From an uncultured Candidatus Rokubacteria bacterium (GTDB taxonomy: Bacteria; Methylomirabilota; Methylomirabilia; Rokubacteriales; CSP1-6), in NCBI GenBank assembly GCA_963789955.1, contig CAWBMV010000034.1:832001-896000 (forward strand): DNA of 64,000 nt, written 5' to 3'. The notes below the pieces were generated by a model. It was not told where the DNA came from and made no database searches. It saw only the letters and a program-made list of their open reading frames with translations. Position 1 is the first letter of the stretch, and every line of letters starts with the position of its first letter. The translations under genes and the position numbers were made by a program. Positions 17,196-23,080 of this stretch are shown here, piece after piece.

Positions 17196-19337
17196 GTGAC
17201 CCAACTAGAGACGCTGATCGAGGAGATTCCGAAGTATCAGCCGGGCGCTGATCTCGATGTTCTCGAGCGCGCCTATCGGTTCTCGGCCGCCTCCCATCAG
17301 GGCCAGCAGCGCGCCTCCGGTGAGCCGTATCTAAGCCATCCGCTTGAGGTTGCCAACCTCCTGGTCGACTTCAAGATGGACGTCACCACCGTGACGGCCG
17401 GCCTCCTGCACGACGTGCTCGAGGACACCACCGCGACCAAGGCCGACCTCGAGCGCGAGTTCGGCGGGGAGATCGCGGAGCTGGTCGACGGCGTCACCAA
17501 GATCGGCAAGCTCGCCTTCTCCTCGCGTGAAGAGCGCCAGGCCGAGAATTTCCGGAAGATGCTGGTCGCGATGGCGCGCGACCTGCGCGTGCTGATGATC
17601 AAGCTCGCCGACCGGCTGCACAACATGCGCACGCTGGACTACCTGCCGGCCGACCGGGCCAAGAAGATCGCGCAGGAGACCCTCGACATCTACGCGCCGC
17701 TGGCCCACCGGCTCGGCATGGCCAAGGTGAAGGCCGAGCTCGAGGACCTGGGGCTCCGCACCCTGAACCCGACCGACTACGTCGATTTGCAAAAGCGCGT
17801 CGCCAAGCGCCGCCTCGAGCGCGAGGCGGACATCAACCAGGTGATCGCCATCCTCCAGCGAAAGCTCTCCGAGGTCGGGATCGATTCGCAGATCCGCGGC
17901 CGGCCCAAGCACTTCTATTCGATCTGGAAGAAGATGCACGACCAGGGCCGCGAGTTCGACGAGATCTACGACCTGACGGCCGTCCGCGTCATCACCGCGT
18001 CGGTCCGCGACTGCTACGGCGCGCTCGGCGTCATCCACTCGCTCTGGAAGCCGGTCCCCGGACGCTTCAAAGACTTCATCGCGATGCCCAAGGTCAACAT
18101 GTACCAGTCGCTCCACACGACGGTGATCGGGCCCAAGGGCGATCCGGTGGAGATCCAGATCCGCACCCGCGAGATGCACCGCATCGCCGAGGAAGGTATC
18201 GCGGCGCACTGGCTCTACAAGGAGCGCAAGGCCGGCAAGGACAAGCTCGACGAGTCGCTCGTGTGGCTGCGCCAGCTGATCGAGACGCAGCAGGACACGA
18301 AAGATCCGCGCGAGTTCATGGACACCGTGCGGGTCGATCTGTTCCCGGACGAGGTGTACGTCTTCACGCCCAAGGGCGACGTGAAGGCGCTGCCGGAGGG
18401 CGCCACGCCGCTCGACTTCGCCTACGCGGTCCACACGAAGGTCGGCGAGCACTGCGTCGGCGCCAAGGTGAACGCCAAGCTCGTCCCGCTGCGGTTCACG
18501 CTGCGCCAGGGCGACATCGTCGAGATCGTGACCTCGCCGAACCAGCACCCGAGCCGCGACTGGCTGAAGATCGTCAAGTCGACCCGGGCGCGGGCCAAGA
18601 TCAATCAGTGGCTCAAGGTCGAGGAGCGCGCCCGCTCGATCGAGCTCGGCCGCGAGATGTTCGAGCGCGAGGCCCGGAAGTATCGTCTCAATCCCACGGC
18701 GCTGCTGGGCGGTGAGGAGATCAAGAAGGCGGCGGCCGACTTCGGCTTCGCCGGGCCCGACGATCTCATGGCGGCGCTCGGCTACGGCAAGAGCTCGGTG
18801 CATCAGGTGCTGAACAAGATCGCGCCCAACGCGCTGCTCGAGTCGCCGGAGAAGCCGAAGGCAGCGGCGACCCGGCCGGCGCCGGTCGACGGCGTGCGCA
18901 TTCGCGGCGTCGACGACTTGCTCGTGCGGTTCGCGCGCTGCTGCAACCCGCTGCCGGGCGATCCGATCGTCGGCTTCATCACGCGCGGCCGCGGCCTCAC
19001 GGTGCACGCGCGCGACTGCCTGACCGTGGCCAAGAGCGTGCTCGACCGGGAGCGTCTCATCGACGTCGAGTGGGACGTCGAGGAGCCCGGCAAGCGGCCC
19101 GTCCGGATCGCCGTCTACATCGGCAAGGACCGGCCCGGCCTGCTCTCCGAGATCACCGGCGCCATCTCGGCCCGCAACGGCAACATCACGAAGGCCGAGG
19201 TGACGGTGACCGACGACCGGCGCGGGATCAACAACTTCGTCGTCGAGGTCGCCGATCTGCGCCAGCTCCAGGACATCATCGCCGCCATCCGCGATGTCAG
19301 AGACGTCATCAACGTCGAGCGTGTCCGGGGGCTCTAG
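17196..19337 (+). CDS. rel: Bifunctional (p)ppGpp synthetase/hydrolase (Rel/SpoT)
   Basis: Intact HD motif (LLHDVLED), RFKD synthetase motif, YQSLHTT, TGS, ARCCNP and ACT domains. Confidence 0.95.
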   Translation: MTQLETLIEEIPKYQPGADLDVLERAYRFSAASHQGQQRASGEPYLSHPLEVANLLVDFKMDVTTVTAGLLHDVLEDTTATKADLEREFGGEIAELVDGVTKIGKLAFSSREERQAENFRKMLVAMARDLRVLMIKLADRLHNMRTLDYLPADRAKKIAQETLDIYAPLAHRLGMAKVKAELEDLGLRTLNPTDYVDLQKRVAKRRLEREADINQVIAILQRKLSEVGIDSQIRGRPKHFYSIWKKMHDQGREFDEIYDLTAVRVITASVRDCYGALGVIHSLWKPVPGRFKDFIAMPKVNMYQSLHTTVIGPKGDPVEIQIRTREMHRIAEEGIAAHWLYKERKAGKDKLDESLVWLRQLIETQQDTKDPREFMDTVRVDLFPDEVYVFTPKGDVKALPEGATPLDFAYAVHTKVGEHCVGAKVNAKLVPLRFTLRQGDIVEIVTSPNQHPSRDWLKIVKSTRARAKINQWLKVEERARSIELGREMFEREARKYRLNPTALLGGEEIKKAAADFGFAGPDDLMAALGYGKSSVHQVLNKIAPNALLESPEKPKAAATRPAPVDGVRIRGVDDLLVRFARCCNPLPGDPIVGFITRGRGLTVHARDCLTVAKSVLDRERLIDVEWDVEEPGKRPVRIAVYIGKDRPGLLSEITGAISARNGNITKAEVTVTDDRRGINNFVVEVADLRQLQDIIAAIRDVRDVINVERVRGL

Positions 19338-19787: not shown

Positions 19788-21481
19788 CTGGCGCGGCAGA
19801 GGAGCGGCCAGAGCCTCGTCGAGGCGCTCGCGGCGGCCGCCCCTCGTTACTCTCCCGACGATCGACCGCGCAAGGTCGATGCTCCTGGAGGAGCTCGACG
19901 GCGCCATCGTCCGCGACGCGCGAACGCTTCTTCGCCTGCACGAGACCCTGTGCTTTCTGCAGGCGTACCCCGACGACGCCAAGATTCTCGAGCTGGTCGA
20001 TCGCGCGCTGGAAACGTTCGCGGCCCGGGTCGATCGACTCGGGCCCGCCGCGCGCCGGCGGCTCCACGATTCCGGCGTCGCCCACAGCACGCTCGATTAC
20101 CCCTTCGGCTTTCCGATGGCCCGCTGGCTCGCCGCGCGATTCCCGCGCGAGACCGAGGTGGCCTGGGCCGCGTTCGTAGACGCCGACCGGCTGGACGAGA
20201 CGCTCTCGCTGCTCGCGACCACGGCGGAAGGCGACGCCTTCAGCGAAGGCGGGATGGGGTGGCGGCAGTGGATTCGCGTCGCCAAAGGCGATCGCCGTCT
20301 CAGCGACGTGCAGCTGATCCTGGAATTGTTCGAGCGCGCGCGGCTGCCCGAGGAGACGCGCGACTGGCTCTTCGAGAGCCTCGGTCTGCCGATCCTCTGG
20401 CGGACGCGGGGCGCGGGCGGCTCGAGGACACTCGCGCGGGTCCCGGCGGGCTCCACGTTCTTCCACGCCGGCGCGCTCGAGCGCGGCGACGTCGATCTCG
20501 TCGAGGCGATTCGGGAGCCGCTGCCTCTCAGACGAGCGCCACGGCCGCTCGCCGAGACGATGATCGACGCCGCGCGTCTGGCGATGGCCACGCGCCAGCG
20601 GGAGCTCCACGCGTTCGCGTACCCGAATCCGGACGACGTGCTGGTGGCGGACGCGGGCCGCGGCCTCCGGCTCGTGTTCATCGGCATCGAGCCGGACTTC
20701 CGGCTGCCGCTCGAGGGTTACTACGGCTTCCTGGCGCTGAAGAACGGCGTGCCGGTGAGCTACGGCGGCGGGTGGGAGCTCTTCGGCGCGCTCGACTTCG
20801 CCATCAACATCTTCGCGTCGTTTCGTCAGGGCGAGTCGCCGTACCTGGCGACCCAGCTTCTGCGCGCGTACCGGTTCATCTTCGGCATGCGCACGGTGGT
20901 GATCGACCGCTACCAGCTCGGCCACGAGAGCACCGAAGCGCTGCGCTCGGGCTCGTTCTACTTCTATCATCGGCTCGGTTTCCGCCCACGCGACCCCGGC
21001 GTCGTACGCACGCTCGCCGAGGAGCGGGCGAAGATCGTCGCCGATCCCGCCTACCGCTCGCCGATTCCGGCCCTGAAACGGCTCGCCGCGGCTGAAGTCT
21101 TCCTGACACTCGCCGGCGGTCATCCAGCGCCCGAGGATCGCCTGCGCGCAACGGACGTTTCGGCGCTCGTCGCGCGCTACGTCGCACGCGAGTTTGGCGG
21201 CGACCGCGCCCGGGCCACACGCGACTCGGCTGAGCGTGTCGCGCATACGCTCGGCGCGCGACGGCGCAACACCTGGCCGCCCGGCGAGCGTCGCGCCTTC
21301 GAGCGCATGTCGCTCGTCGCCGCGCTCATTCCGGATCTTTCGGCCTGGTCGCTCGCCGAGCGCCGTGCCCTGCTCGCGGTCATGCGCGCCAAGGGAGGCG
21401 GGACCGAGATGGCCTACGCGCGACGGCTCGATGGGCATGGCCGCCTGCGTCGAAGCCTCGAAGCTGCTCGCGCGCGCGTAG
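19788..21481 (+). CDS. Uncharacterised protein of about 560 aa (ends approximate; probable frameshifts near 19875 and 21465)
   Basis: Long ORF with host-like codon pattern; contains a FYHRLGF motif reminiscent of GNAT motif B. Confidence 0.6.
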
Positions 21482-21532: not shown

Positions 21533-21579
21533 TTGACAGGCACTTTCAATACTCCGTATGGTTTCAGCAGATGCTGAAA
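21533..21579 (+). promoter_or_regulatory. sigma70 promoter with overlapping inverted-repeat operator
   Basis: TTGACA(21533)-N18-TATGGT(21557), then TTTCAGCA-GA-TGCTGAAA (21562-21579). Confidence 0.7.
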
Positions 21580-21598: not shown

Positions 21599-22648
21599 GT
21601 GCTGAAATCCGAGGAGGTTCGGCGACAAGTGGCCCAGAGACTTCGGGAGCTTCTCCCGAAGGCGAAAGGCTGGCAGGAGAGCATCGGCTCCAAAATAGGC
21701 GGACAAGTCGTCGATTTGTTGGCCAGATTCCAGCTGGCCGGCCAGGAGCACACGTTGGTCGTTGAAGTGACGCCTCTCGGCCAGCCACGCCAGATCAGGG
21801 CCGCCGTGACCAGGCTGAACGACATTCGACGGGAGCTTCCGGGCGCCTATCCGATGGCCGGCGCCGTCTATATCGGCCCGCAGAGCGCGCGAATCCTCAA
21901 GAGCAACAACCTCGGCTTCGTGGATCTCTCGGGCAACTGCTACCTCGCCCTGGAGAACGCGCTGATCGAGAAGGAGGGCAAGCGGAACGTCCGGCCCTCG
22001 ACGCGGCCCCTTCGCTCGCTCTTCGCCCCCCGCGCCACGCGCGTGATCCGCGTGCTGCTGGTCGAGCCCGACCGGGCGTGGCGGCTGGAGGAGCTCGGGC
22101 GCGCCGCCGAGGTGAGCCTCGGCCACTCGCACAACGTGATCAAGCGACTCGAAGAGCTCGCATGGGTCGAGCGTGACGACAGCCAGCGGTTCCGGCTCTC
22201 GAAGCCGGCCGACCTGCTCGAGGGGTGGTGCGAGTCGTACACGTATCGAGCCAACGAGCGTACCTCGTATCTCGCTCCGGAGCGCGTCACGCGAAAGTTC
22301 ATGGGCGAGGTCGCCCGGGTCGCGGGCGCCGAGGGGCGCCGGTACGCCTTCACCTTGAACGCCGGCGCCGCGTTGCTGGCACCCAGTCTGAGATTGCCGG
22401 CCGTTCACTGCTACCTCGAGGGAGACCCCGCGCCGGTCGCTCGCACGCTCGGGCTGCGACCGGCCGCGGAGGTCGACGGAGCGCTCCACTTGCTCGCGCC
22501 CTACGATCTCGGCGTGTTCTACGGCGCCTTCGAGAAGGGCGGGCTCAAGGTGGTGTGCTTGCCGCAGCTGTACGCCGATCTCGTGCACTACGAGCGCCGC
22601 GGACGGGAGCAGGCCGAGCACCTGCGGCGCGAGGCGATGGGCTACTGA
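21599..22648 (+). CDS. AbiEi-like (AbiEi_2/DUF2186-type) wHTH regulator/antitoxin
   Basis: FVDLSGNCYL, LFAPRATRVIRVLL, wHTH EELGRAAEVSLGHSHNVIKRLEE, C-terminal PQLYADL..RGREQAEHL. Confidence 0.72.
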   Translation: MLKSEEVRRQVAQRLRELLPKAKGWQESIGSKIGGQVVDLLARFQLAGQEHTLVVEVTPLGQPRQIRAAVTRLNDIRRELPGAYPMAGAVYIGPQSARILKSNNLGFVDLSGNCYLALENALIEKEGKRNVRPSTRPLRSLFAPRATRVIRVLLVEPDRAWRLEELGRAAEVSLGHSHNVIKRLEELAWVERDDSQRFRLSKPADLLEGWCESYTYRANERTSYLAPERVTRKFMGEVARVAGAEGRRYAFTLNAGAALLAPSLRLPAVHCYLEGDPAPVARTLGLRPAAEVDGALHLLAPYDLGVFYGAFEKGGLKVVCLPQLYADLVHYERRGREQAEHLRREAMGY

Positions 22649-22672
22649 ACGATCGCGGAAGGAGGTGATCTA

Positions 22673-22711
22673 GTGGCCAAGAAGAAGGCGACGAAGAAAA
22701 AGAAGAAGTAG
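22673..22711 (+). CDS. Poly-lysine micro-ORF 1: MAKKKATKKKKK
   Basis: GTG..TAG preceded by AAGGAGGTGATC. Confidence 0.55.
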   Translation: MAKKKATKKKKK

Positions 22712-22767
22712 ATCCGATCCGATGAGGGCGGCACCGAGCTTGGACACGGAAGGAGGTGAGACGCTCG

Positions 22768-22800
22768 ATGAAGAAGAAGGCCAAGAAGAAGAAGAAGTAG
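22768..22800 (+). CDS. Poly-lysine micro-ORF 2: MKKKAKKKKK
   Basis: ATG..TAG TAA preceded by AAGGAGGTGA. Confidence 0.6.
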   Translation: MKKKAKKKKK

Positions 22801-22816
22801 TAACGCGGCTGCGCTT

Positions 22817-22879
22817 GGTGGGGGGTGGCGGCCTCCCACCGTTGACCATGCGGGAGGGGGCCAACGCCCCCTCCCGCGT
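22817..22879. terminator. Two tandem GC-rich hairpins between convergent units
   Basis: ggtgggggg..cctcccacc (22817-22840) and gcgggagggggc-caac-gccccctcccgc (22850-22877). Confidence 0.65.
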
Positions 22880-22888
22880 GTGCTGTGC

Positions 22889-23080
22889 TTAAATGACCTT
22901 CGTGACCTTGCCGGCCTTGAGGCAGCGGGTGCACACGCGCACGCGCCGGGGCTTTCCAGCCATCATGGCGCGCATCGAGACCAGATTCGGAAGCCACCGC
23001 CGCCGTGTCAGCTTGTGAGCATGGCTGATCGTGTTCCCGACGGAGGGGCCTTTTCCACAGACGTCGCAGCGCTGAGCCAT
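22889..23080 (-). CDS. rpmB: 50S ribosomal protein L28 (zinc-ribbon C+ form)
   Basis: MAQRCDVCGKGPSVGNTISHAHKLTRRRWLPNL..VCTRCLKAG. Confidence 0.96.
   Translation of the reverse strand: MAQRCDVCGKGPSVGNTISHAHKLTRRRWLPNLVSMRAMMAGKPRRVRVCTRCLKAGKVTKVI

Follow-up and report, generated by a model that had tools for sequence, protein, structure and literature searches.

The window, a 64,000-nt stretch of DNA from an uncultured Candidatus Rokubacteria bacterium, carries yajC-secD-secF, a relA/spoT-like gene, a zincin gene, a hypothetical gene, a promoter-like site, the gene of a 349-aa regulator, two micro-ORFs, two hairpins, the convergent rpmB and, beyond rpmB, a recG-like gene, in this order. 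The features of the regulator/micro-gene unit are collected in Table 1. The relA/spoT-like gene (17196-19337, + strand) lies 2.2 kb upstream, after yajC-secD-secF, as recognised from sequence. The long hypothetical ORF upstream of the promoter-like site (19879-21480, + strand) matched no Pfam or NCBIfam family; a gene resembling it also lies ahead of the regulator in L052, though not in all relatives.

Table 1. Features of the regulator/micro-gene unit and its boundary (positions in the window)
Feature	Position	Strand	Basis
Sigma70-type promoter-like site (TTGACA, 18 nt, TATGGT) of the unit	21533..21562	+	Promoter scan: 1 found, 0.2 expected
Operator-like palindrome TTTCAGC-N4-GCTGAAA, immediately 3' of the -10 box (candidate site)	21562..21579	.	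Conservation across loci
Orphan AbiEi_2-like regulator, 349 aa	21599..22648	+	PF09952, structure model, fold matches
Extended SD, micro-ORF 1	22657..22670	+	Sequence, predicted pairing to 16S tail
Micro-ORF 1, (M)AKKKATKKKKK, GTG start, TAG stop	22673..22711	+	Sequence, conservation
Extended SD, micro-ORF 2	22748..22759	+	Sequence, predicted pairing to 16S tail
Micro-ORF 2, MKKKAKKKKK, ATG start, TAG ending at 22800, then TAA at 22801-22803	22768..22803	+	Sequence, conservation
Hairpin 1, conserved 3' element of the cassette, putative RNA stabiliser	22817..22840	+	Folding, alignment of relatives
Hairpin 2, between cassette and convergent rpmB, likely shared transcription end, without U-tract	22850..22877	.	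Folding
rpmB (L28), convergent neighbour bounding the unit, outside it	22889..23080	-	PF00830

The micro-ORFs, their ribosome-binding sites and their conservation

An earlier note on this DNA had described two units, 91 bp apart, each with a Shine-Dalgarno (SD) sequence, a start codon, a Lys-rich ORF and a TAG or TAG-TAA stop, and the coordinates of both were confirmed. The sequence GGAAGGAGGTGA is present at 22657-22668 and 22748-22759, and these are its only two occurrences in the 6.77-Mb genome. The 12-nt complement of 16S rRNA claimed for copy 1, AAGGAGGTGATC, also occurs twice in the genome, once in the cassette and once at the 3' end of its own 16S, read on the reverse strand, in agreement with the claim. 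The pairing with this 16S tail was predicted at -24.4 and -21.2 kcal/mol for the two units. Among 2803 long ORFs of the genome, one reaches -21 kcal/mol and none -24 kcal/mol; the cassette SDs are the strongest predicted ribosome-binding sites of the genome. In the folding ensemble, the SDs are mostly unpaired (0.66 and 0.74). Therefore, sequestration of the SDs by the 3' hairpins was rejected, and an anti-SD lock such as in type I toxin-antitoxin (TA) systems is not seen. AAG accounts for 15 of the 16 Lys codons in the two micro-ORFs. Although this bears out the earlier remark that nearly all codons are AAG, the genome uses AAG for 91.7% of its Lys, and the AAG richness of these two ORFs alone is thus unremarkable.

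The regulator was found in all 61 relatives; the named ones among those with regulators 72-78% identical are Rokubacteria. DNA was taken at all regulator matches except two split-gene pieces, which gave 62 orthologous loci (51-100% identity) and seven paralogous loci (25-39%). Units of SD and micro-ORF stand behind 62/62 orthologous regulators, with 121 micro-ORFs in all; since the genomes are kin and not independent, this and the stop and codon counts below are descriptions and not significance tests. Two units are present at 53 loci, one at six and three at three. SD, start and stop are retained down to 51% regulator identity. Within the order, 116 of the 121 micro-ORFs are 10-13 aa long, the maximum being 24. 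The 1327 residues comprise K 948, A 280, T 36, R 29, G 27, S 4 and V 3, with no D or E, and most micro-ORFs have Lys as the last residue. The stops are TAG in 86 micro-ORFs and TAA in 35; TGA is never used, its share being 61% genome-wide and 34% after Lys.

The 85 distinct micro-ORF DNA sequences contain 628 AAG codons and, as single-base neighbours, AAA (49), ACG (23) and AGG (12). The neighbours GAG, CAG, AAC, AAT and ATG, also one step from AAG, were all absent from these 85 sequences. A single peptide is encoded in 11 synonymous spellings. Between units, the spacer lengths represent all three frames, none being kept. With a strict pattern, matches were obtained in 55/61 genomes and with the reversed control in none. 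The micro-ORFs are conserved and under coding-type selection. A lack of conservation of the SD plus poly-Lys frame near homologous regulators had been named beforehand as the result that would speak against the micro-genes; the search showed the frame at every orthologous locus.

One relative (G025) has two regulator/micro-gene loci, L016 (G025:C254) and L177 (G025:C266), with regulators of 82% and 72% identity. No rpmB adjoins L016, and the pair represents a duplication or contamination.

The regulator, its promoter and transcripts of the unit

The regulator matches PF09952 (AbiEi_2) with 28.4 bits against a cut-off of 21. It is a single-copy core gene at a fixed place in the order (141/145 sampled genomes). 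In other families of the class, matches were found in 18/55 genomes, with at most 42% identity among the matches listed. The structure model (pLDDT 89) has three domains, namely a nuclease-like domain, a winged helix-turn-helix (wHTH) and a C-terminal nucleotidyltransferase (NTase)-like fold. The first matched 1y88 (Z 10.5) and NucS 2vld (Z 10.0), and the last matched Streptococcus agalactiae AbiEi 6y8q (Z 8.7, rmsd 2.8, 103 aligned) and MenT1 8an4 (Z 10.3, rmsd 3.0, 121 aligned). These Z values of a model are moderate, and a common fold by itself shows no function. In the PD-(D/E)xK-like motif of the nuclease-like domain, D and E are mostly kept in orthologues and the Lys is replaced; this Lys is kept in 5/6 aligned paralogues.

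Behind all seven paralogues stand long NTase-like ORFs and no micro-genes. Three of these ORFs match AbiEii and one NTP_transf_8 above the cut-off, one gave a weak match, and two had no relevant match; at L170, L171 and L172 they appear frameshifted or truncated. Behind the orthologous regulator, no toxin gene was found in the slot at any of the 62 loci, micro-ORFs standing there instead, and a PF08843 (AbiEii) profile search of the genome, which is 87% complete, gave no match. Thus, both the orphan AbiEi-like regulator and the placing of the cassette where an AbiEii toxin would sit, as the earlier note had it, agree with the profile and neighbourhood data, from which the regulator is classed as an orphan, toxin-less AbiEi-like protein.

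A TTGAC[ATG] -35 element is present in 60/60 orthologous upstream regions. The palindrome TTTCAGC-N4-GCTGAAA is exact in 52 of these 60 loci and within one mismatch in all of them, with extra TTTCA/GAAA half-sites on its flanks. In the window's own genome it has one match at up to one mismatch and three at two mismatches. A wider regulon was therefore rejected for sites within one mismatch. According to PMC7319586, AbiEi represses its own promoter via inverted repeats. Since the palindrome is conserved and unique in the genome, and given this autorepression, the operon itself is probably the main target of the regulator. We infer that the site at 21533 is active as a promoter and that regulator and micro-ORFs are co-transcribed.

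The 247-nt cassette region folds at z -4.5, which accords with the two strong hairpins claimed earlier. However, neither of these GC-rich hairpins has a U-tract, the terminator scan called neither, and the shuffle test on the 60 nt after the last ORF was weak over the 62 loci (median z -1.2, 12/62 below -2). No Rfam family reached its gathering threshold (five weak matches, the best with 21.2 bits against 57), and a known structured RNA was rejected on this ground. A leader peptide or attenuator was likewise rejected because no same-strand gene follows, only the hairpins and the convergent rpmB.

Part of the stretch is contained in 20 runs from 14 studies, 17 of them recorded as RNA; none exceeds half of the words. 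In three of the four runs examined, contigs among those listed span the 3' end of the regulator gene and the micro-ORFs: X1 (22410-22777, three differences), X2 (22587-22793) and X6 (22376-22692). The fourth run, X3, covers every bin, as expected of DNA, and appears DNA-rich. The bridging contigs come without strand, level or proof of a single transcript, and they are therefore only compatible with co-transcription. Thin cover upstream of 21546 in X1, X2 and X6, with pieces starting at 21603 (X2) and 21580 (X6), is at most a weak hint of the transcript start. A peak of RNA depth at 22757-22877 was set aside because AAG-rich contigs from other organisms raise it artificially.

The window regulator resembles those of AbiE and MenAT in its AbiEi_2 domain above the cut-off, its wHTH and its AbiEi/MenT1-like C-terminal fold, and in window-type loci the candidate inverted repeat overlapping the promoter is AbiE-like as well (60/60 within one mismatch). 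In contrast to AbiE and MenAT, the DUF1814/AbiEii toxin gene is absent from the slot at all 62 window-type loci. Further differences from AbiE are that this regulator is a core single-copy gene, that its payload is micro-peptides, and that it has an extra N-terminal nuclease-like domain, the Lys of which is lost in orthologues. With the toxin missing, the locus is not an AbiE system; AbiE-like regulation is presumed by analogy.

Copies and relatives outside the regulator-linked loci

The peptide of micro-ORF 1 is encoded again in the window's own genome, unlinked, at G000:C6:252638 (- strand; L203), with a TTG start. This stand-alone copy has its own TTGACA/TAGCAT promoter-like site and a hairpin. 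It lies between a radical-SAM-like gene and nrdR (names from sequence), with no regulator adjoining, and as it faces the convergent nrdR, it likewise has no same-strand gene downstream. With the strict pattern, unlinked copies were found in 30/61 genomes. Twenty of the 29 outside the own genome were sampled; all 20 have TTGACA and a -10-like box and share the radical-SAM-like or nrdR neighbours of the own-genome copy.

In other families of the class, neighbours other than rpmB are found, and tandem micro-genes stand behind an HTH-MNT-like and HEPN (PF05168) pair. The HEPN protein was detected in 44/55 genomes of those families and in 0/145 of the window's order. Thirty of these 44 loci were examined; 29 of the 30 have two or three micro-ORFs by a relaxed filter and 24 by a stricter one, and the single locus missed by the relaxed filter is cut by the contig end. 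The catalytic motifs expected are R-X4-6-H in HEPN and GS..DxD in MNT domains. The former was present in 0/30 HEPNs and the latter in 0/29 MNT-like domains. Thus, the upstream pair is like an HEPN/MNT TA system in its make-up and differs from it in lacking these motifs, besides its absence from the window's order. The micro-peptides behind it grade into KPAA/KKAAP repeats, for example MAAAKKPAAKKAAPKKAAPKAGKKTGRGC. By eye, a G5/C5 stem after the last ORF, followed by ACTCAT, is seen in part of both groups despite their different neighbour genes. In one genus (L363, L365-L373), a conserved G(K/R)GC tail closes the first micro-peptide, and its terminal Cys might permit dimerisation or a modification.

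A scan of species genomes gave at least 120 matches at at least 119 loci, among them at least 53 K/R-rich ORFs of 10-121 aa. Records of the look-alikes listed include Planctomycetota, CPR, Acidobacteriota, Eisenbacteria, Omnitrophota, Nitrospiraceae and others, and many of those in other phyla appear by eye to be monocistronic. Among the matches listed, the full 10-nt SD AAGGAGGTGA precedes 37/53 Lys-rich ORFs, compared with 11/67 other MAKKK-starting ORFs. The AAG share is above that of flanking genes in 25 of the 29 ORFs with a background among the genome-collection matches listed. In AT-rich hosts, it is 102/210 in the ORFs and 297/1155 in flanking genes, again among the matches listed. Ribosomes slide on AAA runs, as described in PMC4363877, and the AAG enrichment would fit avoidance of such sliding.

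A metagenome scan gave at least 120 loci, of which 61 are regulator-linked, 34 of the stand-alone type, one with rpmB only and 24 other. Viral contigs contributed four matches, two of them short ORFs; L206 and L208 carry a 15-aa MAKKKAGSGGKKKAK-type ORF with the full SD behind replication- or recombination-like genes. In other phyla, Pfam found no TA-like regulator upstream among 30 flanking ORFs at 19 non-Methylomirabilota loci, a subset of 137. In a collection of 15 billion proteins, 0/16 longer relatives were present; ORFs this short are seldom called, and the reading of GTG or ATG starts may affect the outcome of this look-up.

Several single loci are recorded here. In two CPR loci (L039:1086-1775 and L076:2657-3700), the Lys micro-gene adjoins a spermidine-synthase-like gene and secA, and one of the two spermidine-synthase-like genes is fused to AdoMet decarboxylase; the link to polyamines from these two loci is faint. 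L072, titled Nanoarchaeota, has a serS/micro-gene layout, a bacterial-type promoter and the 3' sequence found in the CPR-like L237 and L298, and this record is probably misbinned. The same may hold for some bins titled Gammaproteobacteria or Bdellovibrionales. L192 and L202 are false-positive pattern matches, which are not Lys-rich and overlap a promoter-like TTGACA before an rpsU-like gene.

Possible function of the micro-peptides

Like the histone-H1-like proteins Hc2 of chlamydiae (HctB, PF07382) and AlgP of Pseudomonas, the micro-peptides are of low complexity, rich in Lys and Ala (also Pro and Thr), and free of acidic residues, and their relatives carry KPAA/KKAAP-type repeats and expand up to 121 aa. 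The KPAA tail of AlgP binds polyphosphate granules and resembles an H1 tail, according to PMC9239181. However, Hc2 has 165-237 residues (PMC2848022) and the tail of AlgP 154 (PMC9239181), compared with mostly 10-13 residues here and no tract above 100 aa of the Hc2 kind in the micro-peptides. The tandem micro-genes, the extreme SDs and the TA-derived regulator upstream are further differences. The HC2 profile was over its cut-off in 0/8 longer relatives (the best with 13 bits against 40), none of these eight reached any Pfam or NCBIfam cut-off, and PF07382 had no match in the own genome. Thus, the H1-likeness is compositional only. By profile and length the micro-peptides are not members of Hc2; by analogy, an Hc2-like mode of action may apply.

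The micro-genes are real, conserved and unannotated. As to their products, we favour, with modest confidence, heavily translated, H1-tail-like polycations delivered by an operon that has a domesticated antitoxin as its predicted autorepressor. The strong SDs would give abundant 10-12-residue oligolysine peptides from both micro-ORFs, and these would act as free polycations, in the manner of H1 tails or long polyamines, on DNA, RNA or polyphosphate. A polyanion target is suggested by the composition and by the resemblance to Hc2/AlgP repeats. The AbiEi-like protein, which by analogy with AbiEi would bind the palindrome, is predicted to repress the shared promoter and so to set the peptide supply, and the stand-alone gene would provide a separate supply. 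As a guess, nucleotide binding to the NTase-like fold might lift the repression. With a median of -6.1 kcal/mol (n=59), the SD of the regulator gene is weak compared with those of the micro-ORFs (median -21.4 kcal/mol), and peptides would therefore dominate the output of the operon. The own genome has five HU/IHF matches, two spermidine-synthase-like matches and ppk. Therefore, replacement of absent HU or polyamine synthesis was rejected, and the peptides fill no obvious gap. Unstructured 10-mers are expected to be degraded quickly, which counts against the polycation reading. A wider proposal, which we put forward only tentatively and hold to be doubtful, is an encoded 'polyamine', that is, a free H1 tail of 10-30 residues in many uncultured phyla, made from genes that escape annotation. 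In one class, two unrelated TA modules, the AbiEi antitoxin devoid of its toxin and the HTH-MNT/HEPN pair devoid of catalytic motifs, would have been domesticated as its controllers, and their NTase-like folds would sense nucleotide or stress and release a polycation pulse that compacts or protects nucleic acids.

In the main competing explanation, the act of translation outweighs the product: 30S subunits would be retained at the near-perfect SD, and the Lys run would deplete Lys-tRNA or peptidyl-tRNA hydrolase, or act as a sensor of either, so that translation is throttled upon derepression. Toxic or regulatory minigenes are known, for example lambda bar. The axe-txe leader minigene resembles the present units in its very short ORF, strong SD and TA-related context, and minigene toxicity increases with a strong SD while the tRNA of the last codon is depleted (passages of PMC8708949). 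In the parent systems, moreover, the slot holds translation-inhibiting toxins (PMC10435456 and PMC11375011). The extreme SD strength, the excess of the full AAGGAGGTGA before Lys-rich ORFs, the usual Lys end and the avoidance of TGA point the same way, and SDs of -21 to -24 kcal/mol may exceed the need of high expression. However, the same passages of PMC8708949 state that toxicity drops with length and that two-codon ORFs are the most toxic, whereas the ORFs here have 10-24 codons, elsewhere up to 121, and are continuous with long proteins. They also come at the end of the unit, and no gene that they could regulate follows. The peptides accept Ala, Thr, Gly, Arg and Pro and never acidic residues, which points to the charge of the product, and the AAG enrichment speaks against selection for sliding. 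Since selection acts on amino acids, an RNA sink capturing 30S subunits or Lys-tRNA, as the earlier note had considered, fits less well. We judge the translation-sink explanation as a whole unlikely. Somewhat less probable still is a small basic ribosome-associated peptide, comparable to eL41, bTHX or bS22, that neutralises rRNA charge or aids assembly or hibernation. Strong translation signals, near-universal presence in the class and, in the window's order, a position convergent to rpmB would suit it. Nevertheless, lengths of 10-121 aa, repeat expansion and one to three varying copies are unlike a fixed pocket, rpmB, which is encoded on the opposite strand, gives way to different neighbours in other families, and a 29-aa relative matched no PDB chain.

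The toxin-like peptide of the earlier note would make the locus a genuine TA or abortive-infection module in which the peptides have replaced AbiEii. They do occupy the slot where four of seven paralogues carry an AbiEii or NTP_transf_8 match above the cut-off, behind a promoter with AbiE-like inverted repeats. This reading is weakened because the identical peptide is also encoded away from the regulator, in a conserved copy that has a promoter-like site to itself, and because other phyla have stand-alone forms of up to 121 aa. Moreover, the module belongs to the core genome, in single copy and at a fixed position, instead of being patchy and mobile, and only four matches, two being short ORFs, came from viral contigs. 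It is described in bioRxiv 10.64898/2026.01.19.700257 that AbiEi neutralises the toxin by binding it and inducing auto-phosphorylation, which is impossible with a 10-mer. We regard such a module as very unlikely. An exported cationic antimicrobial or modified-peptide precursor has only the high positive charge in its favour; with Ala and three Val among the 1327 residues there is almost no hydrophobic face, and neither a leader nor a conserved exporter or modifying gene was found among the neighbours examined, so that this origin is scarcely credible. The low complexity and the outcome of the protein-collection look-up (0/16) would be as expected of an AAG microsatellite or of functionless chance ORFs. 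This was ruled out, its probability being practically negligible, by the coding-type substitution spectrum, the matches in 55/61 genomes against none in the reversed control, and the conservation of SD, start and stop over the whole range of orthologous regulators.

The operator-like palindrome, the third copy, the exchange of the regulator within the class and the spread across phyla go beyond the earlier note. A literature search on titles and the start of abstracts, with subscription journals and supplements outside its scope, gave no description of the micro-genes, and the passages available of a small-protein preprint hold nothing on lysine. If the polycation reading is true, conserved bacterial products have been invisible to gene callers, at 10-13 codons, and to tryptic proteomics, being almost all Lys; they would set the minimum size of an H1-like chromatin protein. 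Orphan antitoxins could then turn into housekeeping regulators with a new payload. Encoded oligolysines as polyamine- or H1-like agents, and the role of an orphan AbiEi, would be testable with synthetic 10-mers and the 18-bp operator.

A further basic micro-ORF, MAKGTGMRKETKKPKKKKK, was observed in the same genome at G000:C22:524912 (+ strand; in L204). Its SD is also strong (-21.8 kcal/mol), and by eye its neighbours are a dioxygenase-like gene on one side and an ABC-F-like ATPase gene on the other.
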